Under the pieces are notes generated by a model. That model saw nothing but the letters and a program-made list of their open reading frames with translations. It did not search any database and was not told the DNA's origin. The position numbers and the translations under genes are program-made. Of a stretch of 55,665 bases of DNA, positions 1-55,665 are shown piece by piece (the first letter of the stretch is position 1; each line of letters starts with the position of its first letter). The stretch spans positions 1 to 55,665 of the IMG/VR virus record IMGVR_UViG_3300030098_002838, one strand, 5' to 3'. The DNA is from a virus. Its lineage: Duplodnaviria > Caudoviricetes.

Positions 1-108
1 AATTTAGCACTTGTTGATAAGATTTTTGGATTAACAGAAGGAAATCATTTAAAAACAGATGATATGCTTTTAAAAGAACTTCGTTCAATGATTCCAGAGC
101 AAATTATT
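1..108. repeat. Terminal direct repeat, copy 1 (circular assembly overlap)
   Basis: 1-108 equals 55558-55665 except G99 vs A55656. Confidence 0.97.
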
Positions 109-3100
109 AATTTACCAAATGAAAAAGAATTAAGAAAACTTGCTGCTGTAGACAATGAGTATTATATTACTAGCAAAAAAACAGGTATTACAAAAGAAAT
201 TACAGAACAACAAGCATTGTCTTATTATAGGGATGCTCCTGTTCTAGGCCCGATATGGCAAGATATAAAAAAGGTTTTAAATAGTTTAAATCTTTCTTAT
301 GAAGAAAAAAATTATTCAGAATTAGATGCACCTATTGTTGTTAGTTTTTTACCAGAAGATTTACATTTTAAAATTCCAAGATTCCATGAAAAACCAAATA
401 ACCTTTCAGATAAAAAAGCTCCTCGTGAACACGAATATGTAAACGATGGAGAAAATGTAGATGAACTTTTAAGAATAACTGGCAGAGAGTCTGAGTCTGG
501 AAAAAGAGAATCAGTAAGATATTACATAGCTAAAGCTGCTAATGATGTTTTAAATGGATTAAATCAAATAAGCAAGATTACTCAAAAGGGAGCTGTTACT
601 CCAACTGGTAATTTGTGGGATGAATCTGCTTATAATAAATCAAAAGAACATTTTGAAAGTGCTTATGATAATTTAAAAAATGCATATAGTATATCTTTAG
701 AAGATTTTGTAAAGGCTATGTTTAGAGCTTTAAAGAAAATACCTGCAGAGTTTAGAGATAGAGTAAGAGAGTTTTTATTAAAATGGGCTAGAGAAAAAGA
801 TTCTGGAATAGATAACAAAGTTAATACTAGAAATGCTTCTATAGGTATTATTGAGTTAATGGGATTATCAGGTCGTAAAAGAGCAAGACTATCTAGAGAG
901 CTTATTGATTCTGGAACTATGGATAGAATAGTTGATTCAATGCTTAATAGAAGTTCAGAGTCTGATAGTTTATCTAGAGAAGGAACAGAGTTAGAGGATT
1001 CTTCAGATGCAGAAGAAGTATCAAATGATTTAGCTTTTTGGACTGAATCTTATGATTTTAGAAATGAACAATTTTTTAATTTCTTAGAAGAGTCTGATTC
1101 AAAAGGTTGGTTAACTAAAAAACAAGTTGCTACTTTAATGGAGATTGTATTAACTGGAGATAAAAATCTTTTTATGTCTCATATATTAGGAGAATATAAT
1201 TTTGCTCCAGATACAATTGAAAAAAGTAATATGGCTCAAAGTTTCTGGGTAAAAAATCAAGAAATTAATAGAATTACTGGTTCAGAAAAACCATCTTGGT
1301 GGTATGCTAATTTAGATGAAACTGGAAACAGACCAAAAGGCAGAAGTTCTAAGAAAAAATTAATACCTAAAGTTGGTGGTTCTCCTATATATGGTAAAGA
1401 TATTAGAAGCAATAAAGACTTACCAAGTACATATGTTGTATCATTTGCTGATTGGGCATTAAAGAAAAATCCCTATATGGGAGAAGAAATAAAAATATCA
1501 AGAATATATTTAAATGATATAGTTGATGTTTGGAAAGGCGAAAAAGACGATAGTGGTAGTAAATACTTTGGTAAGCAAGCATGGATTGATTTAGGTAGAG
1601 GAAAAGAATCATTAGTTCGTAAATGGGATAATGAATTTGCAGCTGGTGTAAAAGATTCAAAAGGAAATGTAGTTGTAAGAACCGTTGTTGAAATAAAAGC
1701 AGGTGGTAGTAATCCTTCTTTTGTTGTTGCTAGAGTTCCAGAATTTGTATTAGAGTTTTCAAATGATATGGAAGCTGTTAAAGGATATTTTGATACAGAA
1801 GTTGAAATGGGTAATATGACAAGAGAAATGTCTAAAAACTATATCACATCTATTAAAGAATCAAATGCAGTTGATGGCGTTGGCAATAGATATGCAGCTG
1901 CTCAACATATTACTATGCATGAAGTAATGAAAAGAACACATGGTTCAGAATACTTAATGAGAACAGATGATATATTGCATCATTCTAGAAGAGCTCAAAT
2001 ATCTTATGCAGAAGGAGTTGTTCCAATTGGAGTTGGTTCTCATACGATTAAAATACTAGACCAATCAAAAACATTTATTGTTACTCCAGATGGAAGAACA
2101 GAACCAATGGTAGAATATATTGCAGGCTTAGCAGGTAGAAGTAGAAGTGATGGTGCATCTTTAGTTGAAACAGAACACTTAGATAGTATTGCTAAAAGTT
2201 TAGGAAGAGAACCAATTCAAGGTGGAACTCCATTAAGAGAAGTAAAAAGTGTTGTTTGGTTTAATAGTAGAGAAGATGATTTTAGTAAAAACAATTATCC
2301 TTCTAAAGATTTTAGAGGCTCTGAAGTCTGGGAAGGTGTTCATTATTTAGCATTAAAGCATAATGATTTTGTTATAGACGAGGGATTAAAGTTTGTAGAT
2401 GCAAATGGAAATGTTCTTGCTTACAGTGTTAAAGAAAACAACCATATAAGAATATATGATGGAGATGATAATAGAATTACTAGATTGTCTACATTAGATG
2501 AAGCAAAAGAACCAGATGGTGGTTCTGGAAGTTTTAAATTAAATGGTAGAGTTGCTACTAATGTTCTTACACTACCAGAAGAATCATTGCGTGTTATTAA
2601 GATGCCTAATCAAAGACCTAAGAATAGCGCAGCTTTTCCATTTAGTTGGTTAAGTAAATTATATGAACCAGAATTTGAAAATCTAAGATTAGAAATAGAA
2701 AAAAGATTATTAAATATTGCAAGAGCAAACGTACAAGCAATGTATGATGCTAGAAAAAACCCAGAAGTAATGGCTGCTTTATTTGGTCAAATGAAATCTG
2801 ATAATACTGTCTTTATGAAAGAAACAGATGCTCTTATTGAACCTATTCCAGGCCAGATAATTGGAGATGGTCATATGCATCCACATCTTATTAAAGGGCA
2901 TATAGAACCAGTTAAAAACAAATTAATTGGGCAGAATGCTTATGGTGGTAGGCGTAGAGGATTTGGTAATTATCCTGTTATTAAATCTGATATAGATGGT
3001 GTTAAAGTATCTTCTTATGATGGTGTTGCTATAAGTGAAGATGATGCTACAATGACAAACTTTATTAAGCAAAAGTTAAATTTAGATAGAAGTTTAAGAG

Positions 3101-4989: not shown

Positions 4990-7900
4990 TGTTAGGCCCG
5001 ACAAATTGCGATGTTAAAAAACTTTATACTCAACTTGATAAGGAAATGTATAATGATGTTTTAGATAGAATTGATATGGGAATACAGGACATGATAGAAG
5101 CTCCTGTTATAGAAATACAAGAAGGAATAAAAGAGCAGCTTAATCAAATATTAAAACCAGCTGAAAGAAGATTATTAAAAAGAGAATTAAAAAGAGAAGA
5201 AGATAGATATAAAGAGCATCAAACACTTTATAAGTTTTTAGAAAAATCAAGTGAAGATATGTTTAGAGATGTTGAAATTTTTGTTGTACCAGAAGACTTT
5301 GTAGAAACTAGGATATTTCAAATAAGAGAGTTTTTTGCACAAGCATTTAATGAATTACCTTTTGCAAATAAAAAAGATTTAATGAACTCTGGATTAAACA
5401 ACAGAAGAGATTGGGATGCTGGTAAAATTAGAGCAATAAGAAAAAGAATAGTAACATCTCATAATAAATATTTTAAAAGAGGTAAAGGCACAGATAAGCT
5501 AACAAACTATGAAAACACAATAAAAGGCTCTATGAAAATGGCACTTGATTTAGACCAAACTGGAGCAGCAGCTAAACTTTTATCTATGTCAAAAGGTATG
5601 CTTGATTCTTATTTGCAAGCTCAATATAAATGGATAGAAGGATACTTAGCAGGTGGTGAATATTCAGAATTGAATTTAACTGCTATAGACAATCAAATTA
5701 CAGCAGCTGCTCAAAAAGGTGATATATCTGAGCAAAATTTAAAGCCTATTCAAAAAACAAAAGTAGCTGTTAGATTATTTGAAGAACTTGTGCATAGTGA
5801 AGTTAGAAACATTATACCTCAAAATATACCAACAACATTAGCAGAATTTAATAAATGGAGAAACTCTTGGTTAGGTAAAAAGTTTTTTGAAATGCAAAAA
5901 TTTCAATCTGAAAGACATCAAATGGGTGTAAGTGGAGCTGAATATGTTTTAATTCCACTTCATGTTGACAAAGAAGGTGTTAATGTATTAAGAAACATAA
6001 GAAAACAAGATATTGCTGATGGTAGAATTGCTAAAGATGAAGACCCTGGAAAGTTTGAAAATGCTTATATAGCATATAGAGTACCAGAGGATTTTAATTC
6101 ATTCTTATCTGACATAAGAACAAAGAAAAAAATATCTGAACAATCATTAGAAAAACATTTGCTTGACAATGAAGTAGAAGAAGGTTTTTATACTGCTGGT
6201 GATGATGCTGTTTTTGATTATGAATTTATAGAAGGAACTAATACTCCAAAGAAAAAATATACATCTTTTAATAGGGGTGTAGATTATATGGGAGAATTTA
6301 ATTACCAACCTCCATCAGAATGGATGCCGGGAATATGGAATGCATTAGAAGACCAAAGAAAATTTGCTGAATTATTTTGGAAAGATATTGTTATTAATGA
6401 AACTGCTCTTCTTAATAATGAAATGAAATCATGGGAGCCTAAGCTTCTTTCTCAACTTGCAAATGCTGGATATGACCCAGAGATGATAAAAGAATTAATT
6501 ACTATGGTTGAAAATATGGGCATAGAAAATAATTTTTGGCAAGATGGTCAAGGCAACTATGTTTCTGCAAATACATTAGCAAGAAAAGCATCTAGATTTA
6601 GTTACGGGCCTATTTCTTATTTTCCAGCTGATAAAAAATCAATGATGAGAGAAGCTATAGATGGTATAGAAACTAAAATAGAAAATATTGAAGCAAGTAT
6701 ATCTCTATATGAAAACATACTTAATGGTGAAAATGTTCCAGAAGATGAAATTTATGAAGCAGAACAAAGTATTGAAATAGGCGAAGCAAGACTAGAAGAA
6801 CTAAATGAAGCTCTTGACGCAATAAACAATTTGTTATTTGGAGACCCAGACACTCATGAAGGTAGAGAAAAGTTAAAAACATCTCAAAGAATATTAAATA
6901 CAAAACACAGGTCTTTGTTTGCAGATAAAAAACGAAGAATAAAAGACAGAAGTGTTTGGAGAAAATATGTTACTGATGTATTTAGAGCAAATGAATCCAG
7001 TAAATTGAGAATACAAGGATATAAAACTCTTTTTGCTTTACGCAATTCTCCAAGCTTACTTAAATATTTAATTAATGAAGTAAGAAATTCTGTAGGAGAA
7101 CCATTTACTGATGCTGGATTTATGGGATTTGATTGGACTGAAGAAAATATTGCAGAATTATGGCCAGGTGAAGCCACACCAGAAGATGTAAGAGCTCTTG
7201 GGTTGTTTGTAAGGGGTTGGAAAACTGGTGCAAACTTAGGTATGTGGACTTCATTTACAAATAATTTTCAAAGAATTACTCCATTTTTAAATTATGGTAT
7301 AGAACCAATGATGGAATCATTTAGAGCATTAAGAGATGGAGACCCAAGAAGTGGTGCGACATCTGAAGAATTATTAGCACAAGTTAGAGAGACTGGTGTT
7401 TTAGAGCCTGCTAATGCAATGATTGATATGTTAGTAATGGGAATAGGTGGTATAGAAACTGATTATTTAGAAGGACTTCTTCCAATAAGAGATATGATGG
7501 CTTTGTGGAAAAATACAACTTTAAATGGTTGGTTAGCTAGTAGTAAAGGTTGGAATAATATATTAGCAAGAGCAAGGGGAAGGTCTGAAGGAGAAAAGAT
7601 TCAAGTAGAAGAATTAATTAGAATAAAAACCTTACTTTGGGAATTTATGCACCATGATAAAGGAAATAAAAAAGAATTAAAAAGAATGCTTAGAGATGCT
7701 AAAATAGGATTGAGGCAATCATATATAAACAGATTAGTGCATTGGAAAATATCATGGTTCCCAGCTGGTGCTAAAATTTTTACGTTAAAGGGTGGCGAAG
7801 AACAAATGAGAGCTGAAGTAGCTGTAATGGGATTTTTTAAAGCAGACGATTTAGGAAGAGTTGCTAAGCCAGCAAATAGAAAATGGAAGTACACAGATTC

Positions 7901-8666
7901 TCAAGACGCTGTTGATATGGCAAGGCTTTATGTTTATGCTAATTTATTTGGTATGAACTCACCTCATTTACCTAAAATGTTTAGAGGTGCTTTTGGAGCA
8001 ACTACTTTTCAATGGAGACCTTATGATTATTTTCAAACACAAGAAGACCATAGAAAATTTAAAAATGCAATATTAGCATCTCCATCAGAAAGTCCCATTC
8101 TTGGAGGAATGGCTTTAGTTCCTAGATTAATGTTGCATATAATGAAAAAAGGAATACGAGCACCGGGACTTATTTCTGAAACATATGACAAAAAATTTAT
8201 AAAATGGATTGATAGTATTGTTCCACTAGAAAAAAAGTGGGATGATAAAATGTTAGATGATTTAGTAAACTTTTTATTAATAAGAGGAACTGCATCTGTA
8301 TTAGCAACGACTATGTTTTATAGTAATGTTGGCTATGGAGCATGGAGAACATTAAATCAAACTGCTAGAATGGCTGGTTTAAGAAATCCAATGAGTCAAA
8401 GAGCTATATTTGGATTAGAAAGTCCTCTTATATCAAGAAGTTTACACGCACTTATGTTAGCATTACTAACAGCTAAAGTAATAACAGCCGATGATGAAGA
8501 AGTTTATGAAGATGTAGTTCGTGATTATGCGCCTGCATTTTGGTTTACAATATTTATATGGATGATGGATTTTGAAAAGAATTTTTCAAGAGGATTAAAA
8601 ACATGGTTACCAAGTCCACTTAGAGAAACAGCTCCAAAAATTATAGATGGATATTTTGATAACTAG
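4989..8666 (+). CDS. Large internal virion/ejection protein (~1225 aa)
   Basis: ATG overlaps the RNAP stop (TAATG); helical, with hydrophobic C-terminal segments; last gene of the late arm. Confidence 0.6.
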   Translation: MLGPTNCDVKKLYTQLDKEMYNDVLDRIDMGIQDMIEAPVIEIQEGIKEQLNQILKPAERRLLKRELKREEDRYKEHQTLYKFLEKSSEDMFRDVEIFVVPEDFVETRIFQIREFFAQAFNELPFANKKDLMNSGLNNRRDWDAGKIRAIRKRIVTSHNKYFKRGKGTDKLTNYENTIKGSMKMALDLDQTGAAAKLLSMSKGMLDSYLQAQYKWIEGYLAGGEYSELNLTAIDNQITAAAQKGDISEQNLKPIQKTKVAVRLFEELVHSEVRNIIPQNIPTTLAEFNKWRNSWLGKKFFEMQKFQSERHQMGVSGAEYVLIPLHVDKEGVNVLRNIRKQDIADGRIAKDEDPGKFENAYIAYRVPEDFNSFLSDIRTKKKISEQSLEKHLLDNEVEEGFYTAGDDAVFDYEFIEGTNTPKKKYTSFNRGVDYMGEFNYQPPSEWMPGIWNALEDQRKFAELFWKDIVINETALLNNEMKSWEPKLLSQLANAGYDPEMIKELITMVENMGIENNFWQDGQGNYVSANTLARKASRFSYGPISYFPADKKSMMREAIDGIETKIENIEASISLYENILNGENVPEDEIYEAEQSIEIGEARLEELNEALDAINNLLFGDPDTHEGREKLKTSQRILNTKHRSLFADKKRRIKDRSVWRKYVTDVFRANESSKLRIQGYKTLFALRNSPSLLKYLINEVRNSVGEPFTDAGFMGFDWTEENIAELWPGEATPEDVRALGLFVRGWKTGANLGMWTSFTNNFQRITPFLNYGIEPMMESFRALRDGDPRSGATSEELLAQVRETGVLEPANAMIDMLVMGIGGIETDYLEGLLPIRDMMALWKNTTLNGWLASSKGWNNILARARGRSEGEKIQVEELIRIKTLLWEFMHHDKGNKKELKRMLRDAKIGLRQSYINRLVHWKISWFPAGAKIFTLKGGEEQMRAEVAVMGFFKADDLGRVAKPANRKWKYTDSQDAVDMARLYVYANLFGMNSPHLPKMFRGAFGATTFQWRPYDYFQTQEDHRKFKNAILASPSESPILGGMALVPRLMLHIMKKGIRAPGLISETYDKKFIKWIDSIVPLEKKWDDKMLDDLVNFLLIRGTASVLATTMFYSNVGYGAWRTLNQTARMAGLRNPMSQRAIFGLESPLISRSLHALMLALLTAKVITADDEEVYEDVVRDYAPAFWFTIFIWMMDFEKNFSRGLKTWLPSPLRETAPKIIDGYFDN

Positions 8667-44800: not shown

Positions 44801-45198
44801 ATTATATTACAGAGACTGGAGATGAAAATTTTGCTTTTGATATTAGGTATCAAATAAATGGAGGATTAGTAACAAGTGATATTGGAAGAGAATGGTTAGT
44901 TTTAGATTCTACAAATTTTATATCTGCAAATGATGATGGAGTTGGAACTGCTCAAGGTAACTCTATTAACACATATGAAATACGTTATCCAGAGTTTTCT
45001 GTAAATGCATTTCAAAGTCCTTTAAAGTGTTATAGTATAGCATTGCAAATAAATAATAAAAATGAAGAATCGGCTAGTTCAGAAAGACAATATTTTAAAA
45101 TTGTAAGTATTTCTATAAAATATAGAATAGTTGGAAAAACATCGCAAACAGATACTAGCGCATTTGATACAGATACAATGGTACAATCATCATCTTAA
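41899..45198 (+). CDS. Tail nozzle/stabilisation protein (P22 gp10 / T7 gp12-like)
   Basis: MPKQ...DFSGGEN start; beta-propeller-like LLAFKE...; C-terminal DFGAPNNIKKIY. Confidence 0.75.
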   Translation: MPKQTHIYRDFSGGENTSANPRVIKQNELQLVSGAMVDEMGYLSSFYPPQRSTKAAFYQDFTYTVSPGRGLFYFKSDYSYVSGGNTADDGPYHYVMITDRSTGNISITDGTTKTQIADINILTPDFYVHNNIVRIGCTVGNGTSGGQKWFGPIGTSSSKTLLGHVYTLRWSMIDNALRAPFWGLVGRCHSDTQTSSDAVTITAPVKTDLAGTSTIADDSGVEFTTPSSHGLSVGDTVIISNSEYYSGSHTITAVDTSTTFKIGKTWLSVAEDETPEWRRKGEPAWFSGWQGASASPIEYPSVAQGEASDQNYIVWNADGSNDEIREITSAADNALTIATGTSTTSTFQIYPPIGTFDYPMGMNLDVYQSYGSDKGAWPPGEYEFGQSLVYEGNQESLIRKLFGDNVTIDANEVLYVRVLTCGIFMASTTIGDYHTAAVTSDIDPRLIGGRVYARKAGTGDNWILLVDVDFRVDGDGDGGGTRLNLTDPLDSWNSRDAGAVTSTLWNTSGASTHDIKDNIARWRGFYSTQYTINSPSPFTYEAINGFSQDEPSLSFGAYQTEAKYKTSVLCNSRVFVANVTYYDTRNQSANLTKMGDAILYSPPNKMDTFPPSNRLDIAEGDGDEFTCLMESGGMLLAFKESTLYIVDVKNPNPAGWRLQGKFDGLGIKNTHSAVKVQSAVAFANNYGCWIYDNNQLKDLIQGKISVNQWQNWTRNKFRKFEFSGTATATTANKLDDSGGTFTAGKSNILEGDVVFNTTDGTTANITGIDSDTRLSLDSNIMASGENYYIESDTFGPNVGYDNISKKLIIVNDCQSISDSPRFYDLVTGAWTRGWDNAPDRTGAALKTGVSYFMDGKLHQDAVASGGIEWDTMNNSWTNFVTIPEATGLDSIGHNSAGTGAAVYVDGNMNASDERNIYIFAMKQKVVDYSVAEGNGDANANRTRYNIVTRDEDFGAPNNIKKIYGISIDYITETGDENFAFDIRYQINGGLVTSDIGREWLVLDSTNFISANDDGVGTAQGNSINTYEIRYPEFSVNAFQSPLKCYSIALQINNKNEESASSERQYFKIVSISIKYRIVGKTSQTDTSAFDTDTMVQSSS

Positions 45199-45199
45199 T

Positions 45200-45970
45200 A
45201 TGATAGATATTATAAGGCATAAGCAAGTATCATTAAATGATTTGCAAGAAGGTGAATATGTTATTAATGAATTTGGTGGTCAAGTAAAAGGTGTATTAAA
45301 ACTTAATGGAAAACTTCATAGTTCAATATTTAATGAACAATCAAACAAAGCACCTTTAAAATCAGAAAAAAATGATATAGTTATTAATGATGGAATAAGT
45401 GATAGAGTTATTATAGGAGATATAGGTAAAACTAAAGATGGCAAATTATATGGAATGAAAGTATCTACACCGGGCCATAATGCTAGATTTGCTCCTAAAG
45501 AAAATTTATTAGTAAATACATCTGAGTCTATTAGTATTAGATATAGATTTATAGTTCATAATTTTAGTGATGATTTAAATACTACTAAAACTTATATGCC
45601 GTGGTTTAATAATAGTATTGAAGGTACTGATATGAATCACAGCTCTAGGTCTTTATTAACTCCTTATAAAATGACATTATATAAATTATATATGAGACCA
45701 GAAACATTAAGTGATGGAACAGCTAATTTTGCATTTGGATTAGACAAACAAGATGATGGAGACACTACTGTTGATTCTGTATCTACATTTACATATACTC
45801 CAACATTATCTAGCGATACAATGATTACTGTAAATAAATCAGATTGGAATAACACACCAACTGTAGAAGCTGGTAAAAAAATAGGATTGTATGTACAACC
45901 AAGTGCAGATTCATCTGGAAGTATAGATTGGTTTATAACATCTGTCTGGCAAGTCGAGGTTGTATTATAA
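45200..45970 (+). CDS. Tail-associated structural protein
   Basis: Follows the nozzle gene; beta-rich C-terminus. Confidence 0.55.
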   Translation: MIDIIRHKQVSLNDLQEGEYVINEFGGQVKGVLKLNGKLHSSIFNEQSNKAPLKSEKNDIVINDGISDRVIIGDIGKTKDGKLYGMKVSTPGHNARFAPKENLLVNTSESISIRYRFIVHNFSDDLNTTKTYMPWFNNSIEGTDMNHSSRSLLTPYKMTLYKLYMRPETLSDGTANFAFGLDKQDDGDTTVDSVSTFTYTPTLSSDTMITVNKSDWNNTPTVEAGKKIGLYVQPSADSSGSIDWFITSVWQVEVVL

Positions 45971-45988
45971 TGTATATAGCAATAAATT
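45960..45988 (+). promoter_or_regulatory. sigma70-like promoter of the ejection-protein operon
   Basis: TTGTAT-N17-TAAATT. Confidence 0.55.
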
Positions 45989-46014
45989 TTAAATGTATTT
46001 TCACAATATAGAAT

Positions 46015-47043
46015 ATGGCTACTGAAAGAAAAAAAAGACAAGCTCAAAAATCCACAGTTGATACTTCTAAGTTAAAAGAATTTGCATCTAAGCATGGTGG
46101 TGGTGAATCTAAGGGAGCAAGAAGACTTAGAATGGCTAAATCTGTAAAGGATGAAGCTAGTAAAATACAATCTCAAATATCAAGAGAGCAAGAAAAAGCA
46201 CAGAAAAAAAGTCTTTGGTCTAGTATAGGTGGAGCATTATTTGGATTAGCTGCTGGTGTAGCAACTGGTGGAGCATCTTGGGCTGTGCAAGGAGCTGCTG
46301 TAGGTGCTGGTACATATTTAGGCGCTCATGGTGGTAAAAAACTTGCTGAAACTGAAGGGGGAGCTAAAAGAGAAAAAATTAAATCAGATTTATGGTATAC
46401 CCCAGAAGCTGAAAAACAAAACTTAGCATTTGATGATTATGAAAAAAAATTAAATAAAAGTATTCAAGATAGAGCATTAGCATCTGGTTTATTAACAGCA
46501 GCAGTAGCTGGTGGTGGAAAACTTGTAGAAAAATTAAAAACTGCTAAATCAAAAGAAGCCTTAATGAAATCAAATATTGCTACAGAAAGTGCAAAAGCTC
46601 AAGAAGGATATAAATCAATAATGGATACAGAATTAGTTAAAGTTGATGCATCTAAACCAACATTTTTAGATAGGGATTTAAGCGCTGTAGAACTTGTAGG
46701 AGACCTTCAAAAAAATCGACCAGATTTAAATTTATCAAATATAGAAGTTGTTGCAACAGAATCGTATGGGCCTAGTGCTTTATCATTAAGAAAAGCACCT
46801 CTAGGCACATCAATAAAAAGTCAATTTGCAGCTGCTACTCCACTTGCAACAGAGGCGGCTCCAACAATGATGGATGCTTATATGACTGGATTAAAAGGAA
46901 TGGCATCAGATTATGCACAAAAATCTATATTAGCAAGTGGTGCTATGGGAATATATGGATATAGACCTGAATTGCAATCTTTAAGACCAGTTCAAATGAT
47001 GACACCCATGTATCAAACACCACAAAGAACTAGGACTGCATAA
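46015..47043 (+). CDS. Putative ejection (pilot) protein
   Basis: Gly/Ala-rich hydrophobic hairpin GGALFGLAAGVATGG; podovirus gene order. Confidence 0.6.
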   Translation: MATERKKRQAQKSTVDTSKLKEFASKHGGGESKGARRLRMAKSVKDEASKIQSQISREQEKAQKKSLWSSIGGALFGLAAGVATGGASWAVQGAAVGAGTYLGAHGGKKLAETEGGAKREKIKSDLWYTPEAEKQNLAFDDYEKKLNKSIQDRALASGLLTAAVAGGGKLVEKLKTAKSKEALMKSNIATESAKAQEGYKSIMDTELVKVDASKPTFLDRDLSAVELVGDLQKNRPDLNLSNIEVVATESYGPSALSLRKAPLGTSIKSQFAAATPLATEAAPTMMDAYMTGLKGMASDYAQKSILASGAMGIYGYRPELQSLRPVQMMTPMYQTPQRTRTA

Positions 47044-47909
47044 TGTCTAGAAATATGAATTTAGACGAACTCTTTTGGGGGATTGAAGAATATAAAGATT
47101 TTGCTCCTACATACGATGATTGGAAAGAAAAATATATTCAACAAGATTATGATTATGCTGGGCAAGAATACGGGTTAGCAGGTGAGTTATATGGAATGGC
47201 TCAAGATAGAGCTACGTTTGAAAGGGCTCAAAGAGGACAAAGAAGAGAAGGAGCTGCTACAAATCTTCAAAGACAATTAACTGGTATGGGTATGCAAATG
47301 GGTAGTACACTTGCACAGGCTCAAGAATCTGCGTATGATATATTTGGACAAGGAGAAGAAGTAGCATCTGGTGGATTGGGAACTAGAAGTGGATTGACAA
47401 GAAGGGCAATGAGAGGAATTGAACAAAGTGCTGAAAGAGGATTAGCAGGACAAGCAATGTCTGGATTACAAGCAAAATCCCAATATGAAAGCACACTTGC
47501 AGACTTAGCTGCTGGAGCATTTGGTTCTGCTCAGCAATTACAACAAGCAGGTATAAGTTATGAATCTGCTGGAATTTCTTATGATAGAGCTGCTACAGAA
47601 AGAAATAGAGCAATGGAATCACTTGTATATGATTATGAAGATGAAATGTATGATTACTTATTACAATTAGGTTCAATGGATATATGGGCAAGTGATAGAA
47701 ATCCTAATGTAGATTACGGAACTGGACAAAGTGGGCAAACAACTGGGGATGAATTTGACCCTAATGCAAATCCAGAAGGTGGAGGTCAAAACTTAGGTGG
47801 TTGGAATAATACAGGTATGTCGTATGAAGAGTGGTTAAACATATATGGTGGTGGAGATAAAAACGCAGGCGGTGGTAGTGGAAGCACTGTACCGAGAACA
47901 GGCCCGTAA
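47043..47909 (+). CDS. Putative ejection protein
   Basis: Gly/Ala/Gln-rich helical protein. Confidence 0.55.
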   Translation: MSRNMNLDELFWGIEEYKDFAPTYDDWKEKYIQQDYDYAGQEYGLAGELYGMAQDRATFERAQRGQRREGAATNLQRQLTGMGMQMGSTLAQAQESAYDIFGQGEEVASGGLGTRSGLTRRAMRGIEQSAERGLAGQAMSGLQAKSQYESTLADLAAGAFGSAQQLQQAGISYESAGISYDRAATERNRAMESLVYDYEDEMYDYLLQLGSMDIWASDRNPNVDYGTGQSGQTTGDEFDPNANPEGGGQNLGGWNNTGMSYEEWLNIYGGGDKNAGGGSGSTVPRTGP

Positions 47910-49303
47910 TGTCATACGAAGGAATACAAATACCAAAAATTTATGAAGCTCAAATGCCATCTACTGGTGGGGGAGCTTGGGATTTAGCTGAAAGACTTAT
48001 TCCTACAATGTTTAGTGCATATATAAGAGGTATGCAAAATGAAGAAGTAAATCAATTAAGAGCTGATACTACTATGTATAGTTCTATAGCAAATTCAGCT
48101 CAACATTATTTAGAACCAGAACCTATTGAAAATTTAATTGAGCAATTAACCCTAGAAAGAGATAACCAAGTTAAAAGTGGTGATTCAGTTAGAGCTAATT
48201 ATTTAAATGCAAATATAGCAGCTATGCAACCGTGGTTAACAACTCGTCAAAAACAAAAAGATGCTAGGGGATTAATTAATAGCATGGAAAAAGAAATGGA
48301 TGCTTTAGAAAATACTCCTGGCTATGAAGGAAAAGCATTAAACTTATTAAATGATATGCTTGAAAATCTAAATGAGTATGAACCATATTTTAATACTAGA
48401 ATGGTTAAAGATATAAATGAAGAGCAAAAAGAATTAAATGATAGGTTATCTGTTCTAAGTATATTAAGAGATATGGATGATAATAATTTATTAGAAGAAG
48501 AAGTAGATGGAATACAAATTAGTAGAGCTAAATATCCAAATGAAGAAAGTTATTTAAAAGCAAAACAAGCTGTAGATTTATTACAAATAGCAGTTCAAGG
48601 TAATCAAGTTGATAGTAAACTACTTAATCGTGGATTAATGTTGCACAATCAATCATTAAATGAATTTGGGGTAGCAAGTTCTGAACAAGCTAGAGTGAAA
48701 AAAGATTTACACAGTGCTGTTGTTGGCAATTTAGATAGACAATTAATGGCTTTAGAAAATAAATATGTAACTCCTAGAGGAGAAAATCCTGATTTTTATT
48801 TAGACGATACTATTATACAATCAGGTCTTATTCCAGATTTAAGAAAACAATTAAACATAACTGGAACTGGTGTTGATTCTAGAACATTAAAATTAATTAG
48901 AAATTATGCTTTAGGTAATGTTGCTAAAGTTCTTGAAAACACAAGTGGAGTACCTAAACAAATACAAGAAAGAATTACTAGGTGGACTAAAGCAGGTAAA
49001 CCTATGGGGCCACAAGGTGATATATTAATGGATGATATAGAAGAATATTTAGGATACTATAAGCCAACTTCAATAATTAAAAGAGAGTCTGTATTAGATG
49101 ATTTTAATTTTCCAGGCACAGGTGGTAAAGAAACAAACGCAGAACAATTTGTTCTTGGATATTTAGATTTTTTAAAGTCTCTTCAAGAATCTTCTGATGA
49201 ATTATATGATTTATGGGGATGGGGAAGAGAACAAAAAACTTCTTCTATGGGACAGACAAAACACCATTCTTCTGTATCTGCTTATATGGGGGGAAATCCT
49301 TAA
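47909..49303 (+). CDS. Putative ejection protein
   Basis: Helical; directly before the giant gene. Confidence 0.55.
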   Translation: MSYEGIQIPKIYEAQMPSTGGGAWDLAERLIPTMFSAYIRGMQNEEVNQLRADTTMYSSIANSAQHYLEPEPIENLIEQLTLERDNQVKSGDSVRANYLNANIAAMQPWLTTRQKQKDARGLINSMEKEMDALENTPGYEGKALNLLNDMLENLNEYEPYFNTRMVKDINEEQKELNDRLSVLSILRDMDDNNLLEEEVDGIQISRAKYPNEESYLKAKQAVDLLQIAVQGNQVDSKLLNRGLMLHNQSLNEFGVASSEQARVKKDLHSAVVGNLDRQLMALENKYVTPRGENPDFYLDDTIIQSGLIPDLRKQLNITGTGVDSRTLKLIRNYALGNVAKVLENTSGVPKQIQERITRWTKAGKPMGPQGDILMDDIEEYLGYYKPTSIIKRESVLDDFNFPGTGGKETNAEQFVLGYLDFLKSLQESSDELYDLWGWGREQKTSSMGQTKHHSSVSAYMGGNP

Positions 49304-49350: not shown

Positions 49351-52300
49351 ATGCAACCGTTACCTTATTTTCAATTAGCTAGAGAATGGCAAGAAAATCT
49401 TCCAGATTTGTGGAACGATTCTGGAATATATGATTTAAGATATTCTGATGCCGATGGAAACTTTACAAGACCTTATCCAGAAGCAACAATTGATAGTCTG
49501 TCTGTTGAAGAACTACCAGTTATAAAACACAGAATAGATAATATTATAGCAGCTTATCCAGAGCTAAAAAAATATTCTTTAGAACACCAACCAGATTATG
49601 AATCTACAATAGGAGAGAGATTTTATTATGGTGCGTTTGACCCTATATGGAACAGAGGAGTAGAGGGAGCTCAATCTGCTTTGTCTTCTGGGCTTGGACA
49701 GCTTTATAGTAAAGATATTTATAGTGCAAATGAATTTGATAATCTTATTAGTAATTATACTGATTATCATAAAGACCGAAAAAACTGGATAGACAAAGGA
49801 TATATAACAGATGAAGACGAAATTGCTAAAATAGAAGATTTAGGTAGTTGGTTAGAAAAAGTACCAGATATTACTGAAAGAATTAAAGAAGGGGATAAAG
49901 AATATGTAAAATTAAATGAATTTATTCCTTATTCATATGATACAAAATATACACATAAAGAATTTGAAGGATTAGTTGGTACACCTGTTGTTGAAAGGAG
50001 AATGACTGATAAACAAGCAAGGTCTAAAACACTTAATCCCATTGAAGAAGCATTAAAAGAAAGCGCTGATTGGCTTCATAATGCGTCTAGAGAAAGAGCT
50101 AAACAATGGTTAAAAGAAAGAGAAGGAGATATTAGATTTAGTGCTTATCAAGACCATATGAGTGGTAAACCCGCTGGATTTTTTGCAAACTTTGTACCAA
50201 ATGAGTATTGGTTAGACACTCTTTTTGGATTAGTTCCTTCTGCTTTAGCTGTTTTAGGTGGAGCTGCAACTGGTATCGCTACTGCAAAAATTGCTGGCCC
50301 AGCTGCTGGTGCAAAAGTTGGGACAGCTGTTACTTTAGGATTAATGACTCCGATGGAAGCCACTGGTGAATATCAAGAAGCATATGAATATGCATTAAAA
50401 AAATATGGCGATGAAGACGTAGCTAAAGAAATTGCTAGAAACGCAACAGCTACTTATTTATCTATTATGGCTGCTACAGAATGGCTTCCAACTGGTAGAT
50501 TAATGAAAATGGCTATGCCGGCAAAAGCTGCTAGAGTAACTGCGCAGGGATTAAATAAAAGTATTTATCAAAAAATATTGCATGACCCCAACTTGGGAAG
50601 TATAATGCATCAAATAGGAGGAACAAAAGGAAGAAGATTTGCCTTTCACCTTCAAAATGCTACAAAGCAAGCTTTTGTTGAGGGAATGCAAGAGTTTACG
50701 CAATACTTAGGTTCAGTTGCAGTTCAAAGTGGATATAAAGATGAAACATTTTCAGATATATATGACCCTTCAGAAGCTGCTTCATCAATGTTAGGTGGTA
50801 TCATGTTTGGTGGTATACTTGGAGGTGGTGCTTCTGTTTATGGTGGTAAAGATGCATTTAAATTAGCCCAAGCCAAGTTAATAGGTGAAGAAATAACTCA
50901 ATATGGTGAAATATCTCCAGAAGAAATAGTTGGACTTAGACAAACAATTGTAGATGGCGAAACAGTTGGAGAAGTTGTTACTAAAGATATGTTGGAAAAA
51001 GAAGAAGCTGATACTAAGAAAAAAGAATACACAGGAAAACCACTATATAGACAATTACCAACAGAACAACAAGAAACAGATATTGTTCTTAGAAAAGCAG
51101 AACCATCATTAAGTGGGTTTGTATCTGAATTATTAAGTCCTAGAAAAGCAGGTAGAGCTGCTGTACCTAGAGAAGAGATAGAAGATAAAAAATTAAAAAC
51201 ACTTGTTAATAAACTAGATAAGTTCGGGCCTGGTAGGCAAGCAGAAAAATTAGTAGCTACATTACAACAAGGTGGTAAAGACTTTGTTGATTCTTTAGAA
51301 CCTGAACAAAGAGATAAAATTAATAGTGTATTAAAAGGCGCTATTGGAAATATAAACAAAGACGTTCTTGATGTTGTAAAAAATCCAGATAATTTAATAG
51401 AAGATGTATTAGCAGGTAAAATATCCATTGATTATGAAATTGATAAAGGTTCTGGTAAGATTGCTACACCACATAGAAAAACAGCATTAACTATAAAAGA
51501 TAAAGGATATGTATCAGACTTAACAAAAGACTATGAACAACAATTAATAGATGAGTTTGGAAAGACTCCAAGTGCTAAACAAGCTTCTGGGTGGTTTTCT
51601 AGAAATCTTCGATTAGATATTAGTGAAGATATGCTTAAAGAAGAGATTCAAAAAGATATAGAAAAACAAATTACTCAACCAAGCAAAGAAGAAATAGCAA
51701 AGTCTTTACAATCAGAAGCCTTTAAAGAATTTGCAGACCAAACATTTGCAAAGTTAGAAGGTGATAATATAGTAGATGAAAAGGGCAATTTAGAAAAAGG
51801 AGCTAAAGGTCTTACAGCTATGGTTGTTAGCGAAGACAGATACAAAGGTAAATACACTGGTCAAATTGGTGAAGTAGTAAAATTTGATAAAGGTGCTAAT
51901 AAGGTATTAATGAAAATGCCAGATGGAAAAACAATACCTTTTAGTGTTGGTACTGATATTGCTTTAACTCCAGAATCTGCTGAAGAGCAAGGTGTTACTG
52001 TTACTGCTCCAATTGAAGAAACAGATATAAAAGAAGATGTAAAAGCAGTTGATAAAAAAATATCTCAAGGAGTAGAAGAGGTATTACGACTTAGAGATGA
52101 AGTTGATAAAGGCGCTAAAGCAATAGAGAAAGCACAAGCTCAAAGAAAAACACCACCTAGTATGATTCCATTTGTTAAAATGCAAAAAGAATTATCAACT
52201 ATGCTTAAAGACCCAAATATTATAAAAGAATTAAAGGCCCGTGGTGAATTAGAATCTGTTCAAAAGTTTATTGAAGAAGACAAACCATCTCCACCTCCAA

Positions 52301-55300
52301 CAGAACCAAAAGATGCAGAAAGTCAAGCTAAAAAAAGATTTCATGATGTTGGAAAAAGTTATGATGAAGATTCTCCTGTAGCAACTAAGAAAGTTATTGA
52401 AAAAGCAATGAAAGATATTATGGGGCCACATGCTCCAGATGTTGAATCTGTTCTTGTTAATGAAATTAAAGAAAATCCTAACGCAGTTGGTTCTTATGTT
52501 GATGGTATGTTGCAATTTGTATTGGGTGAAGCTACTGAACAGACAGCAGTCCATGAACCAGTTCATTGGTTTTTAAATAGAATACTTACTGAAGAAGAAT
52601 ATGCTTTCTTAGCAGAAGAGTTTAAGGGTGAAAATCCTATAGAAACAGAAGAAAATATGGCTGATGCAGCTACTCAATTCTATTTTGATAGTAAAACATT
52701 TGTTGGAAAAATAAAGAACATACTAAAGAGATTCTGGAAAGCAGTACAAGCATTTTTTGATAGTTCAATAAATGATGAAATGACTGTGTTTGATTTGTTT
52801 AGCAGAATAGGTAGAGACTTTGAGGAAAAAGTATATAAAGACAATTTTGATGCTTTAAATATTAATACATCATTGGTTGAATTAAATACAAGCCAAATGA
52901 CTAAAATAGAATCACCAGAAGCAGATGTAAAAACATATAATGATTTATTTAAAAAACCCAAGAGTGAATATACTCCAAGAGATAGAAAAATATTTAACCA
53001 TATTCATAGCGACTTACCAACAATAAGAAGCTCTTCTAGTTTACCAAAGTTACCTATAAATCAAAATGTTCTTAAACAAGCAATGGATACTCCATTTGCT
53101 TATAGATTTGTAGAAAATATATTAAAAATGGGAAACAAAATAAGTCTATCTCAACCATTTCCAACTAAAGGTATTTCTAAATATGAAAAATATGCTGTTG
53201 ATAGATTATATAATGATATTATAGAAGATGCTGAATTTAAAGATAAAAAATCAATTGATACTGAAGACCTTGTAGATAAGTATGAAAATTATATACAACT
53301 AGAATTTCCTCTTAATTCTTATATGGTAAGATACCAAAAAGATAATTTAGATAAAGATGGAATGGCTTTTCCTATGCTTTATAAAAAATTTATTAGTAAA
53401 GATATAACAAAAGTTTATTCTGAAAGAATTATGACTACTGATGATAATTTTTATTTAGGACAACAACATGGATTTTATTTAGAAGGAACGATGGGTGAAA
53501 TGCCAACAGGAGCTCCAGTTCAAAAAATTAATGGATATGGATGGTTTGTTTATGTTGAACATGATGTTGCAAAAGGTTCGATTCAAATACCTCCAATAAA
53601 GCTGTCAATAATGTATGAAATACAAAGAGATATTGACAAAATGCTTATAAAGAAAAAAGAACCGCAAGAACAAATTGAACCTACAATAAGAGGATATACA
53701 AAAAAGGAAATAGAAAGAATAGAAAAAGGAGAAGTAATAACAACAGGTAAACAAATTACTTCATTAATGGAAGACTACGTAGCCATTGTTGAAAAAAGGA
53801 TTCAAACATCAATGCAATTTGCTGGCGAACAAGGATTAAGAAATTTTCTAAAAAGACCTTTTACATATACATCGCCTGAATGGCCAGATATAATAAGAGC
53901 AATTAAAAGTCCAACACTTGATGGTGTTGATATTGATATGATTATTAAGAAAGCTGGATATAAAAATAAAATTAAAACTTTTTTAGATGAAGCAAGTGAA
54001 GATGATAAAATAAAAATTAAAAAACAATATTATAATGGATATGTTGCAGAATTAAAAAACAGTTTAGATTTATTAAGAGAGAATGTTAAACAATCAACTA
54101 GGCACGCTGTTGCTGAAAGATTAGATACATCTCTTAGATGGCAAGTTGCTGGTTTGGTTAAAGAAGAATCAGAAAAACCTTACCATATTGCTAAGTTAGG
54201 TCGAGAAGTTACAAGTCAACCAGACTATATTTATTGGGATGGGAAATATGCTCCAGACGTTGTAGCTGATAAAATATTAGATGCTTTATCTCCATATTTA
54301 TCAGAACATGGTAAATTGTATAAAAGTAAAGTAAAAGATTTTACTAAAAAACTTGCTATTGGTACTTTACCTGGCGAAAAGGGAAGTATTCAACAACTTG
54401 AAAATCATAAGTCGTTTTATAAAATACGAGAAAATCAAGATTTTACTAATATATTATATCCATATAAAGATAAAGGAGAAGTTACACAAATTCCAGATAC
54501 TGCTCTTGTATCTTTGCCGATGGATAAAAACAAAAGAATATTAGCAGTAAAACAAATATTAACTAAAATAAGAATTAAACCTCAAGCAATAAAAAGACTT
54601 ATTTCTCAATTAGATAAATATGATAATTATTCAAATAAATTTAAAAATAAAGATGAACATTCAAAGGGAAACAAAGATGAAACTTTACAATTTAACGAAC
54701 CCGAATGGATAAAAATTGATGGAAATTATATTCAAAGAAAGTTTGTAAGTCCAGAAATAACTGATGATGTAAGTTTGTCAAGAGCTATTTTAACTGGATT
54801 GCTCCAAATGGAAAAATTTTTAAGAGCAATAGCTTATGATAGAGACCTAAATACAGTTTCTCATATAGGTAAAGAAACAAATTCAGGAATGTATCCTGAC
54901 CATAACATTTCACAATATGACGCATTTCATGAACAGTCCGTTGAAGATAGATTAAAATCGGAAAAATGGGATATAGAGGTAGGAGATTTAAAACAGCAAA
55001 GAAAAAATCTCATGTATGTGATTAATAGAGAAATCGGTTTAAAACAAAAACAAAAACAATCTGTAGACCGACAAATTGCAATTAGTAAAAGAAGAATAAA
55101 AGCACTAGAGTCTAGATATAGTTTATTTAAAAGGGATTTTAAAAATATTGACCAAGCTATTGATTCGTGGGTTAATGAAGGAAATAGGCAATTAAGAGGG
55201 CTTTTAAAAGATAAACATACTTTAGCATTATTAGCAGAATATGATTCAACAATGCTTGAATCTATAAATAAAATTAAATTAATGGCTGAGACAAAACAAG

Positions 55301-55665
55301 ACCCTCAGACAGAAAGATTTTTAAATGAAGCAAAGACATTTAGACAAAAACAAGTATATACATATATATTAAAAGCAAAAGACAGAGGAATTTCCTTTGC
55401 TGGTTTTGGAGGAGCAAAAGCACATTCAAAACTTGAAGCTCAACTTGATAAATTTGAATCCACTTCTAGATTATATTTAAATGATTTTGAATTAAATGAC
55501 CCATACAGAGTTAAAACATATGAAGAATATCAATTGAAAAAGGTTGGTGATGGTGGAAATTTAGCACTTGTTGATAAGATTTTTGGATTAACAGAAGGAA
55601 ATCATTTAAAAACAGATGATATGCTTTTAAAAGAACTTCGTTCAATGATTCCAGAACAAATTATT
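49351..55665 (+). CDS. Giant virion/ejection polyprotein, N-terminal part (hydrophobic segments, KOW-like motif, HExxH zincin); continues across the junction into 1..4989, total 3731 aa
   Basis: ATG at 49351 (MQPLPYFQLAREW); frame 1 stays open to the window end, so the ORF track omits it; unit length is divisible by 3, so it is in frame with 64..4989; HEPVH at 52552-52566. Confidence 0.9.
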   Translation, partial: MQPLPYFQLAREWQENLPDLWNDSGIYDLRYSDADGNFTRPYPEATIDSLSVEELPVIKHRIDNIIAAYPELKKYSLEHQPDYESTIGERFYYGAFDPIWNRGVEGAQSALSSGLGQLYSKDIYSANEFDNLISNYTDYHKDRKNWIDKGYITDEDEIAKIEDLGSWLEKVPDITERIKEGDKEYVKLNEFIPYSYDTKYTHKEFEGLVGTPVVERRMTDKQARSKTLNPIEEALKESADWLHNASRERAKQWLKEREGDIRFSAYQDHMSGKPAGFFANFVPNEYWLDTLFGLVPSALAVLGGAATGIATAKIAGPAAGAKVGTAVTLGLMTPMEATGEYQEAYEYALKKYGDEDVAKEIARNATATYLSIMAATEWLPTGRLMKMAMPAKAARVTAQGLNKSIYQKILHDPNLGSIMHQIGGTKGRRFAFHLQNATKQAFVEGMQEFTQYLGSVAVQSGYKDETFSDIYDPSEAASSMLGGIMFGGILGGGASVYGGKDAFKLAQAKLIGEEITQYGEISPEEIVGLRQTIVDGETVGEVVTKDMLEKEEADTKKKEYTGKPLYRQLPTEQQETDIVLRKAEPSLSGFVSELLSPRKAGRAAVPREEIEDKKLKTLVNKLDKFGPGRQAEKLVATLQQGGKDFVDSLEPEQRDKINSVLKGAIGNINKDVLDVVKNPDNLIEDVLAGKISIDYEIDKGSGKIATPHRKTALTIKDKGYVSDLTKDYEQQLIDEFGKTPSAKQASGWFSRNLRLDISEDMLKEEIQKDIEKQITQPSKEEIAKSLQSEAFKEFADQTFAKLEGDNIVDEKGNLEKGAKGLTAMVVSEDRYKGKYTGQIGEVVKFDKGANKVLMKMPDGKTIPFSVGTDIALTPESAEEQGVTVTAPIEETDIKEDVKAVDKKISQGVEEVLRLRDEVDKGAKAIEKAQAQRKTPPSMIPFVKMQKELSTMLKDPNIIKELKARGELESVQKFIEEDKPSPPPTEPKDAESQAKKRFHDVGKSYDEDSPVATKKVIEKAMKDIMGPHAPDVESVLVNEIKENPNAVGSYVDGMLQFVLGEATEQTAVHEPVHWFLNRILTEEEYAFLAEEFKGENPIETEENMADAATQFYFDSKTFVGKIKNILKRFWKAVQAFFDSSINDEMTVFDLFSRIGRDFEEKVYKDNFDALNINTSLVELNTSQMTKIESPEADVKTYNDLFKKPKSEYTPRDRKIFNHIHSDLPTIRSSSSLPKLPINQNVLKQAMDTPFAYRFVENILKMGNKISLSQPFPTKGISKYEKYAVDRLYNDIIEDAEFKDKKSIDTEDLVDKYENYIQLEFPLNSYMVRYQKDNLDKDGMAFPMLYKKFISKDITKVYSERIMTTDDNFYLGQQHGFYLEGTMGEMPTGAPVQKINGYGWFVYVEHDVAKGSIQIPPIKLSIMYEIQRDIDKMLIKKKEPQEQIEPTIRGYTKKEIERIEKGEVITTGKQITSLMEDYVAIVEKRIQTSMQFAGEQGLRNFLKRPFTYTSPEWPDIIRAIKSPTLDGVDIDMIIKKAGYKNKIKTFLDEASEDDKIKIKKQYYNGYVAELKNSLDLLRENVKQSTRHAVAERLDTSLRWQVAGLVKEESEKPYHIAKLGREVTSQPDYIYWDGKYAPDVVADKILDALSPYLSEHGKLYKSKVKDFTKKLAIGTLPGEKGSIQQLENHKSFYKIRENQDFTNILYPYKDKGEVTQIPDTALVSLPMDKNKRILAVKQILTKIRIKPQAIKRLISQLDKYDNYSNKFKNKDEHSKGNKDETLQFNEPEWIKIDGNYIQRKFVSPEITDDVSLSRAILTGLLQMEKFLRAIAYDRDLNTVSHIGKETNSGMYPDHNISQYDAFHEQSVEDRLKSEKWDIEVGDLKQQRKNLMYVINREIGLKQKQKQSVDRQIAISKRRIKALESRYSLFKRDFKNIDQAIDSWVNEGNRQLRGLLKDKHTLALLAEYDSTMLESINKIKLMAETKQDPQTERFLNEAKTFRQKQVYTYILKAKDRGISFAGFGGAKAHSKLEAQLDKFESTSRLYLNDFELNDPYRVKTYEEYQLKKVGDGGNLALVDKIFGLTEGNHLKTDDMLLKELRSMIPEQII
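55558..55665. repeat. Terminal direct repeat, copy 2 (circular assembly overlap)
   Basis: Matches 1-108 at 107/108 positions; unit length 55,557 bp. Confidence 0.97.

Follow-up and report, generated by a model that had tools for sequence, protein, structure and literature searches.

A giant gene divided between the ends of a marine podovirus contig encodes a 3731-residue protein with a predicted two-barrel RNA polymerase module

Virions of Cellulophaga phage phi14:2 contain a packed RNA polymerase (RNAP), gp66, by which the early genes are transcribed. The preprint describing it also reports that gp65 (a zincin), gp66, and gp67 are fused as one polyprotein in some phages, and that the fourth position of the motif DFDxD is Ile or Val in every crAss RNAP (10.1101/2020.03.07.982082). 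Giant proteins with a fused zincin and RNAP have thus already been described for crAss-like phages. In the survey of polyvalent proteins, the virion RNAPs (vRNAPs) of N4-like phages are said to be always fused to zincin-like peptidases, GNATs are listed among the polyvalent domains, and autoproteolysis is proposed (PMC5512222). The vRNAP of coliphage N4 itself is described as the third ejection protein, a beads-on-a-string chain threaded through the tail (PMC13434306), and it has been suggested that the vRNAP fusions of Thermus phage P23-45 couple DNA entry with early transcription (PMC10770324). The sequence considered here is IMG/VR virus record IMGVR_UViG_3300030098_002838 (Duplodnaviria; Caudoviricetes), the whole of which, 55,665 nucleotides, is referred to as the window. 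It contains a giant gene, begun at ATG 49351 and completed at 4989 across the ends of the record, which would add a further system of this kind.

The explanation that best fits the results, and that as a whole is considered probable, is that the window is the circular genome of a podovirus with one giant protein of 3731 residues, made up of an N-terminal module, a variable cassette, and a two-barrel RNAP, which would be packed, ejected, and linked by a disulfide to the protein encoded next. It is like phi14:2 gp66 (PDB 6VR4) in having, as modelled, a single-chain two-barrel RNAP in a giant protein at the end of the structural block, with large partner proteins adjoining, an HExxH-bearing part in the same block, and cysteine at the chain termini only. 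It differs in the Gly of its DxDGD motif (21/21 sequences), where crAss RNAPs are reported to have Ile or Val; in a genome of 55.6 kb rather than ~100 kb; in the lack of detectable sequence similarity, including that of portal, capsid, and terminase; and in the position of the HExxH module, which is upstream of the RNAP in one chain, while in phi14:2 gp65 is encoded after gp66.

The other systems are each similar in part. As described, N4 gp50 (3500 aa) is in the same size class, is last in a podovirus ejection-protein operon, and avoids cysteine almost totally, but its T7-like polymerase fold is unrelated to the two-barrel fold, N4 has no terminal cysteines, and there is no sequence similarity. 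P23-45 gp96 (PDB 8H2N) is a two-barrel vRNAP whose fusion partner, by its published account, is a large protein forming or lining the path of DNA entry, and it aligns with the model of the present RNAP over 370 residues (VIA-align Z 9.2). That phage is, however, a siphovirus, with a tape measure protein as the fusion partner and the RNAP at the N-terminus, in contrast to the C-terminal RNAP of the present podovirus. As with the polyvalent proteins of PMC5512222, one chain holds a transcription-starting polymerase and an HExxH module, with swappable GNAT and SLOG domains in relatives and with delivery presumed. Compared with the N4-like vRNAPs in that survey, the polymerase is predicted to be two-barrel rather than T7-like and membership of the HExxH module in the MPTase group is not demonstrable, and the 900-residue N-terminal module does not correspond to an LPD domain described there (no Pfam match). 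What is new here is the podovirus lineage of 55.6 kb outside the crAss-like phages, an active site with Gly, this specific module at the N-terminus, and the order in which HExxH precedes the RNAP.

Bases 1–108 of the window and bases 55558–55665 are identical at 107 of 108 positions, a match also seen as repeat family D1, and the sole mismatch, at overlap position 99, is synonymous (GAG/GAA). This terminal overlap arose in the assembly of a genome that is circular or circularly permuted, and its removal leaves a unique length of 55,557 bp (GC content of the window 32%). ATG 49351 shares its frame with window position 1, so that the circularised open reading frame (ORF) is 11,196 nt, or 3731 codons, and occupies 20.2% of the 55,557 unique bases. 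It is bounded by TAA 49345, two codons 5' of the ATG, and by TAA 4987–4989 at the 3' end, and no internal stop is present in any of the 3731 codons, including those at the join. The 5' part (49351..55665, + strand) encodes residues 1–2105, with its final 108 nt repeating window 1–108; the 3' part (1..4989, + strand), in which codon 2070 starts at position 1, encodes residues 2070–3731 and the stop. In the ORF list of the window these appear as an ORF at 64..4989 (1641 aa) and a 3'-open one at 49351..55665 (2105 aa). A reading made beforehand from the sequence alone (the sequence-only reading) had proposed one frame open from ATG 49351 through the overlap to 4989, of 11,196 nt and about 20% of the genome, with the listed 1641-aa ORF as its C-terminal piece only, and on both counts the circularised ORF agrees with it.

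The window is a complete, circularly closed podovirus genome that the assembler opened in its largest gene. The record is assigned to the class 'linear' in IMG/VR, although CheckV gives it as 100% complete, and the single G/A mismatch probably hid the end repeat from an exact-repeat classifier. Since the contig was opened within it, and the one mismatch probably concealed the repeat, the giant gene does not show in the deposited record. Rotating such contigs ahead of gene calling would bring it back.

The join is also found in independent assemblies. A linear 34-kb IMG/VR contig (L001) has an unbroken ORF of 3862 aa, and residues 1–3731 of the window protein align with residues 1–3862 of this ORF from end to end at 73.7% identity. 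The DNA of the last kilobase of the window and that of its first 136 bases are collinear at one position of L001. The surroundings correspond as well, with upstream ORFs of 344, 307, and 479 aa in L001 for those of 342, 288, and 464 aa in the window, and a downstream ORF of 1254 aa for one of 1228 aa, followed by DnaB, methyltransferase, and 264-aa genes on the opposite strand. Six more complete giants of 2698–3663 aa are present on other contigs (L002, L007, L009–L012), each followed by a partner ORF of ~1240 aa, and the N- and C-terminal modules are in a single chain in most database relatives too, including those of only 2,540–2,840 aa.

For a check at the level of reads, Logan contigs from four public marine metagenome runs, found in three studies, were used. 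In three of the four runs the contigs extend beyond the last base of the window, while in the fourth the contig (X5) ends at 55655. The contig of run X1 is 17,061 b, with the window end at its base 8861, and that of X2 is 16,827 b, both extending ~8.2 kb further; these two runs may be the source sample of the record. In the case of X4, a contig of 1,886 b passes the window end by 190 b. The independent assemblies are the strongest support for the join, going by comparison of sequences, and the read-level support is weaker.

The C-terminal module (511..4986, + strand; residues ~2240–3731, ~1490 aa) is 41–58% identical to its relatives. It carries the only DxDGD of the giant, DQDGD at residues 3166–3170 (nt 3289–3303), and DxDGD is invariant in 21/21 aligned relatives. 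An AlphaFold2 model of residues 2532–3731, built from a 21-sequence alignment, has a mean predicted local distance difference test score (pLDDT) of 73.8 and a predicted template modelling score (pTM) of 0.67. Foldseek ranks the virion RNAP of phi14:2, 6vr4_A, first for this model (E 4e-8, probability 1.0), followed by QDE-1 (ranks 2–11), maize RDR2, beta-prime chains, the non-virion RNAP (nvRNAP) of AR9, and P74 gp62. In VIA-align the model matches RDR2 (7w84_A) with Z 13.8 over 531 aligned residues, with 5.3 as root mean square deviation (rmsd), spanning model residues 1–953, and 6vr4_B with Z 11.8 over 630 residues at rmsd 5.1, spanning 16–959. Along the model a beta-rich region (211–405) and a helical stretch (419–519) precede the DxDGD barrel (525–674), which superposes on AR9 7s00_d with Z 12.6 and rmsd 2.9 and, more generally, on the barrels of AR9, PhiKZ, and cellular beta-prime with Z 11.5–12.6 and rmsd 2.2–2.9. 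The DxDxD metal motif of a beta-prime-like double-psi beta-barrel (DPBB) is thus represented by DQDGD on a barrel that superposes on those of known enzymes. As modelled, this module has both barrels in a single chain and is an RNAP of the QDE-1/crAss gp66 type, for which polymerase activity is predicted. The sequence-only reading had placed an RNAP at the C-terminus, and the fold found by Foldseek and VIA-align, together with the invariant motif, upholds this.

Relatives of the giant are few. A word-indexed protein search gave 35 matches, and an exhaustive HMMER search of 1.84 billion proteins gave only 75 cluster representatives at E <= 0.001. With either half of the giant as query, tblastn matched none of 50,697 GenBank phage records. 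PHROGs searches with six distant relatives found only a tail-protein match (E 1.3e-5) and phrog_1017, a family of unknown function. Eight distant members (P0055, P0058, P0061, P0072, P0073, P0078, P0081, P0085) have GD[FYH]DID, and by its aligned motifs the wider RNAP family would therefore span both the Gly and the Ile types of active site.

The conserved N-terminal module (49351..52050, + strand; residues 1 to ~900) is 25–36% identical to that of relatives and is predicted to be mostly helical. It contains two hydrophobic segments, one rich in Gly and Ala at 50206..50355 (+ strand; residues 286–335), which is conserved in the family alignment, and one rich in Gly at 50776..50847 (+ strand; residues 476–499). 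These are the only stretches of the giant with a 19-residue Kyte-Doolittle mean above 1.2, and they lie where such segments had been expected (~50220–50350 and ~50780–50850). Support for a membrane channel is limited to these two predicted hydrophobic helices. A small predicted beta unit follows at 51853..51960 (+ strand; residues ~835–870, pLDDT 55–68) and is SH3/KOW-like at best. With the model of residues 1–1200, Foldseek gave nothing below E 0.58, the SH3, Hfq, Tudor, and Spt5-KOW matches to the beta unit being non-significant, and the KOW-like motif of the sequence-only reading is thereby reduced to a beta unit of low confidence; the order it gave, from hydrophobic segments through a small beta unit, an HExxH module, and parts of no recognised family to the RNAP, does match. 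In hhalign comparisons of the N-terminal module with gp67/gp47 the best result was not significant (E 0.01, probability 4%, residues 289–492 against gp67 205–401), and with a two-sequence template the same comparison with gp67 gave E 0.079. An ORF upstream of the giant (46015–47043) has a Gly/Ala hydrophobic segment resembling those of the giant. No paralogy was found between the giant and its neighbouring ORFs. An antisense ORF of 176 aa inside the giant gene (50898–51428, − strand) is most likely spurious.

Between the two conserved ends, BLAST coverage falls to 1–6 subjects at residues 900–2200, against 18–31 at the N-terminus and 25–86 over the RNAP. The middle of ~1300 residues is, to judge from these alignments, a lineage-variable and swappable cassette. 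In the window it begins with an HExxH module (52303..52875, + strand; residues 985–1175, ~190 aa), in which HEPVH, the single HExxH of the giant, is at residues 1068–1072 (nt 52552–52566). This module is present only in long forms (the window, L001, L008, L009, L010), with 55 invariant columns, and HEPxHWF and a downstream acidic EE..A segment, which would provide the third ligand, are invariant in all five, although the motif alone does not establish the fold. It is absent from the forms of 2,700–2,980 aa (L002, L007, L011, L012), and in these and in P0020 a GNAT acetyltransferase domain (PF13673) occupies the slot of the HExxH module, accompanied in L012 (644–9577) by cpYpsA/SLOG (PF12694, E 6e-25). 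The rest of the variable middle (52876..55557 and on to about window position 510, + strand; residues 1176–2069) has no family match; residues 1203–1496 are common to P0033 and P0036 and ~1500–1935 to L001 only. A homologue search with residues 950–2105 found nothing among proteins of 1157–3684 aa, and the ESM Atlas gave no usable match for residues 1201–1935. Unrelated domains are thus held in one chain and exchanged between relatives, as in polyvalent proteins, and the slot resembles a cassette of exchangeable effectors.

As for the zincin that the sequence-only reading had named, the conserved HEPxHW motif in 5/5 carriers stands in its favour, and the assignment to a family does not follow from the searches. 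No peptidase family was found by Pfam at E up to 10 for the five proteins with the module, a PDB profile search with it gave as best match an unrelated helicase fragment (E 0.15), hhalign against phi14:2 gp65 or the gp65–gp49 pair gave E 0.25–0.46, and the region has a pLDDT below 70 and is modelled at low confidence. In an ESM Atlas feature search the module lies near viral proteins of ~210 aa, with LPD23 (PF18838), a polyvalent-protein domain, in 20% of one cluster, which is a lead only.

The only Cys codon of the giant is TGT at 4981..4983 (+ strand), which encodes the penultimate residue, 3730 (...KDCP-stop). About 16 cysteines would be expected in 3731 residues from the 0.43% Cys of the other structural ORFs (Poisson P(<=1) 1.8e-6), and its other two frames contain 59 and 206 TGT/TGC codons. 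The partner gene (4989..8666, + strand; 1225–1228 aa), the ATG of which at 4989 overlaps the stop of the giant as TAATG, also encodes one Cys, at residue 7 (TGC 5007–5009). Four ORFs upstream (45131..49303, + strand; 279, 342, 288, and 464 aa, 1373 aa in all), which have no family match and are candidate ejection proteins, have none. The same pattern is seen in the relatives, with a single penultimate Cys in 8/8 full-length giants and a single Cys near the N-terminus in 14/14 partner ORFs. In the 64 family proteins that are 900 aa or longer there are 69 Cys in 139,340 residues. Only 3 of these Cys are further than 10 residues from a chain end, and 61 of the 64 proteins have a Cys within their last 10 residues.

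Similar placement is found in phages with proteins diverged beyond alignment. In phi14:2 (L019), Cys is present only at the last residue of gp67, only at residues 3 and 2179 of 2180 in gp66, and only at residue 3 in gp65. In crAss001 (L020) the positions are C2339 of 2341 in gp47, C5, C1334, and C2404 of 2412 in gp50, and C5 in gp49, while the comparison proteins PolA, RNR, and DnaB have 12, 17, and 6 Cys. Flavobacterium phage Fpv2 (L023) has only C4400 in gp33 (4401 aa, with a DYDID motif) and C3 and C1461 in gp34. There is no Cys in gp50, gp51, or gp52 of N4. Under table 11 the giant ORFs of the crAss-like phage cr273_1 (L024, NC_055904) are interrupted by 34 and 12 in-frame stops, as would fit a recoding of stop codons in that phage, and it is left out of the Cys comparison. 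In the p-crAssphage-like genome MW067001 (L022), two annotated thioredoxin genes (23314–24581) lie ~1.5 kb from the RNAP block, which may bear on the handling of disulfides or be fortuitous.

The partner gene is directly 3' of the giant in 13/13 related loci, and in a distant relative (P0082) the RNAP is fused to the partner homologue. By alignment offsets, the C-terminus of the giant and the N-terminus of the partner map to about one residue of P0082, ~2395, and this fused protein has no Cys in 3651 residues. From these sequences it is tentatively proposed, with slightly less than even confidence, that phages with two-barrel vRNAPs join their ejected giants head to tail by single disulfides from C-terminus to N-terminus. 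The links would be gp67-S-S-gp66-S-S-gp65 in phi14:2 and giant-S-S-partner here; cargo in the megadalton range would pass out of the capsid in order, as a single covalent thread, and reduction in the cytoplasm would separate the proteins. Gene fusion, with a peptide bond, and fission, with a disulfide, would then be interchangeable states of one chain. Chaining of this kind would explain both the purge of other cysteines and their complete absence from the fused relative. No description of head-to-tail disulfide chaining was found in the phi14:2 preprint, the crAss001 atlas, or literature searches. The preprint (10.1101/2020.03.07.982082), as distinct from the final Nature version, which this statement does not cover, mentions neither cysteine nor disulfide, and the atlas reports structural disulfides in crassvirus virions only in tail and portal-vertex proteins and does not use the word 'cysteine'. 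A complex prediction with the last 300 aa of the giant and the first 300 aa of the partner scored 0.02 against a mark of 0.32 and counts neither way. The partner ORF has no significant homology to gp65/gp49 in hhalign, and loci of stand-alone RNAPs, in which the Cys end of the upstream gene was sought, were not found in viral or metagenome contigs.

Building on the observed continuity of the gene, the fold and motif of its RNAP, and its modular middle, a course of infection can be proposed. The giant would be packed in the capsid, like phi14:2 gp66 and N4 gp50, and threaded through the tail ahead of, or together with, the DNA. The N-terminal module might serve for passage through the envelope or for anchoring in it, the cassette for the delivery of ready-made enzymes, and the RNAP would transcribe the early genes before any phage protein is synthesised. 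Packaging and ejection are proposed because the gene is positioned after the tail genes, because there is precedent in phi14:2, crAss001, and N4, and because the avoidance of cysteine is shared with the ejected proteins of N4; that ejected proteins avoid cysteine in general may be supposed from this.

Other explanations differ on the gene itself, on the template of its polymerase, and on the fate of its product. That the junction ORF is an assembly artefact, formed by chimeric circularisation or from the terminal repeat of a linear genome, with the two halves being separate genes, would agree with the 'linear' class in IMG/VR, the one mismatch in the overlap, and the contig ending at 55655. 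It is nevertheless contradicted by the results, since both halves are in a single unbroken ORF on the linear contigs L001, L002, L007, and L009–L012, both window ends are collinear on L001, and contigs in 3/4 runs pass the window end, and it is hardly credible. If the join is accepted, the module might resemble QDE-1 and RDR2 in being RNA-dependent or in accepting either template, making RNA from RNA, instead of being a DNA-dependent transcriptase of early genes. The plant RDR2 is indeed the top row in VIA-align, QDE-1 fills ranks 2–11 in Foldseek, and the Gly of DxDGD is as in QDE-1 and not the Ile or Val of crAss RNAPs. However, the genome, with its terminase, portal, and capsid protein, is that of a double-stranded DNA podovirus; gp66, which is the closest enzyme among those of phages, depends on DNA according to its preprint and yet is equally QDE-1-like; and the choice of template is not decided by similarity of fold. 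An RNA template is accordingly thought very improbable.

Whether the chain is cut is a more balanced question, and an unprocessed beads-on-a-string chain is equally possible as a cleaved polyprotein. Under self-cleavage, the HExxH module would be a zincin-like metallopeptidase with activity on its own chain, cutting it either inside the capsid or once the protein has entered, and the products would be an RNA polymerase set free, effector parts, and a part for the membrane or for ejection. The sequence-only reading, with its one ejected polyprotein of membrane channel, protease, and polymerase, is of this kind; it is upheld in part, and the variable cassette, the earlier description of the design for crAss-like phages, and the terminal-cysteine pattern are not in it. 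The invariance of HEPxHWF and the EE..A segment in 5/5 carriers, the LPD23-bearing cluster in the ESM Atlas, and the processing of such giants by zincins proposed in the phi14:2 preprint (10.1101/2020.03.07.982082) and by Iyer 2017 (PMC5512222) point in this direction. Set against them are the low-confidence fold, the lack of a zincin match by Pfam, PDB profile, or hhalign with gp65, and the absence of the module from L002, L007, L011, and L012, which have the same fusion of N-terminal module and RNAP. Since these shorter giants keep the fusion, cleavage by the HExxH module is not essential to the design, and both self-cleavage and the set of products it would yield are regarded as doubtful. 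Alternatively, the giant may be an uncut ejection protein in which the N-terminal module has an inner-membrane role like that of T7 gp16 and the tethered RNAP transcribes the entering DNA, an arrangement that is a serious though still tentative possibility. It has parallels in the N4 vRNAP, described as an ejection protein in the gp16 position with a beads-on-a-string build (PMC13434306), and in the proposal for P23-45 that vRNAP fusion couples translocation with early transcription (PMC10770324); moreover, the fusion is kept in 8/8 complete giants and the hydrophobic helices are conserved. Distant stand-alone RNAPs of ~1,400–1,590 aa (P0053, P0072), with Cys at both ends, tell against it, since their existence means that the RNAP works without a peptide link to an N-terminal module.

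Several points weigh against the preferred explanation of a closed genome with a packed, ejected, and disulfide-linked giant. No part of the window giant has a sequence match in Pfam, PHROGs, or the PDB: Pfam and PHROGs gave 0 families for both halves, the PDB search with both halves gave nothing meaningful, and a profile of the relatives gave low-complexity noise only. In phmmer and hhalign the RNAP has no significant similarity to phi14:2 gp66 or crAss001 gp50, the structural identity of its model to gp66 is ~9%, and the first barrel, bridge helix, and trigger loop were not individually picked out. The model of residues 1–1200 (9-sequence alignment) has a mean pLDDT of only 48.5, with generic helical bundles as its only matches in VIA-align (Z <= 8.4), and the roles proposed for the N-terminal and HExxH modules are conjectural. 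Packaging, ejection, and early transcription are plausible by analogy only. The Logan extensions show only that the window end is not the assembly end in those runs. In the case of the disulfide, which is itself putative, the terminal cysteines could serve another purpose, and MW067001 fits the pattern in part, since its RNAP protein of 4091 aa has 8 Cys while its zincin protein ends ...SCM.

If the preferred explanation is right, vRNAPs of the crAss type with fused delivery or effector modules reach beyond the Crassvirales of ~100 kb into marine podoviruses of ~55 kb, a lineage of which no relative is cultured or in GenBank. Its active-site glycine is the canonical one, shared with the polymerases of eukaryotic RNAi, and this has a bearing on the phage origin proposed for the latter. 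The terminal-cysteine rule, if true, would be a simple answer to the ordering, threading (through a tail of 3–4 nm), and release of very large internal proteins; it reaches past the genome in the window and is directly testable in cultured phi14:2, crAss001, and Fpv2.

The recognisable genes elsewhere in the window are those for the small and large terminase subunits, a P22-like portal, an SU10-like major capsid protein, a tailspike with an S74 chaperone domain, DnaB, a DNA methyltransferase, exonucleases, and a Holliday-junction resolvase. The nearest phages in GenBank have a portal at most 30% identical over part of its length (3 records, none crAss-like) and a terminase ~25% identical. Between 18 window ORFs and 23 virion and packaging proteins of phi14:2, phmmer found nothing below E 0.02. 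The hallmarks of Crassvirales, similarity in capsid, portal, and terminase and a genome of ~90–105 kb, are not seen in this genome of 55,557 bp, which has no such similarity. From its genes it would appear to belong to a lineage of uncultured marine podoviruses that has no described relatives and is not recognisable as part of that order. No tRNA genes were found in the window, and a scan of it for promoters and terminators was at chance level. The tailspike gene (35470–38550) has internal families of direct repeats (36067–36735 and 37315–38042), and its S74 domain, an intramolecular chaperone, is C-terminal.

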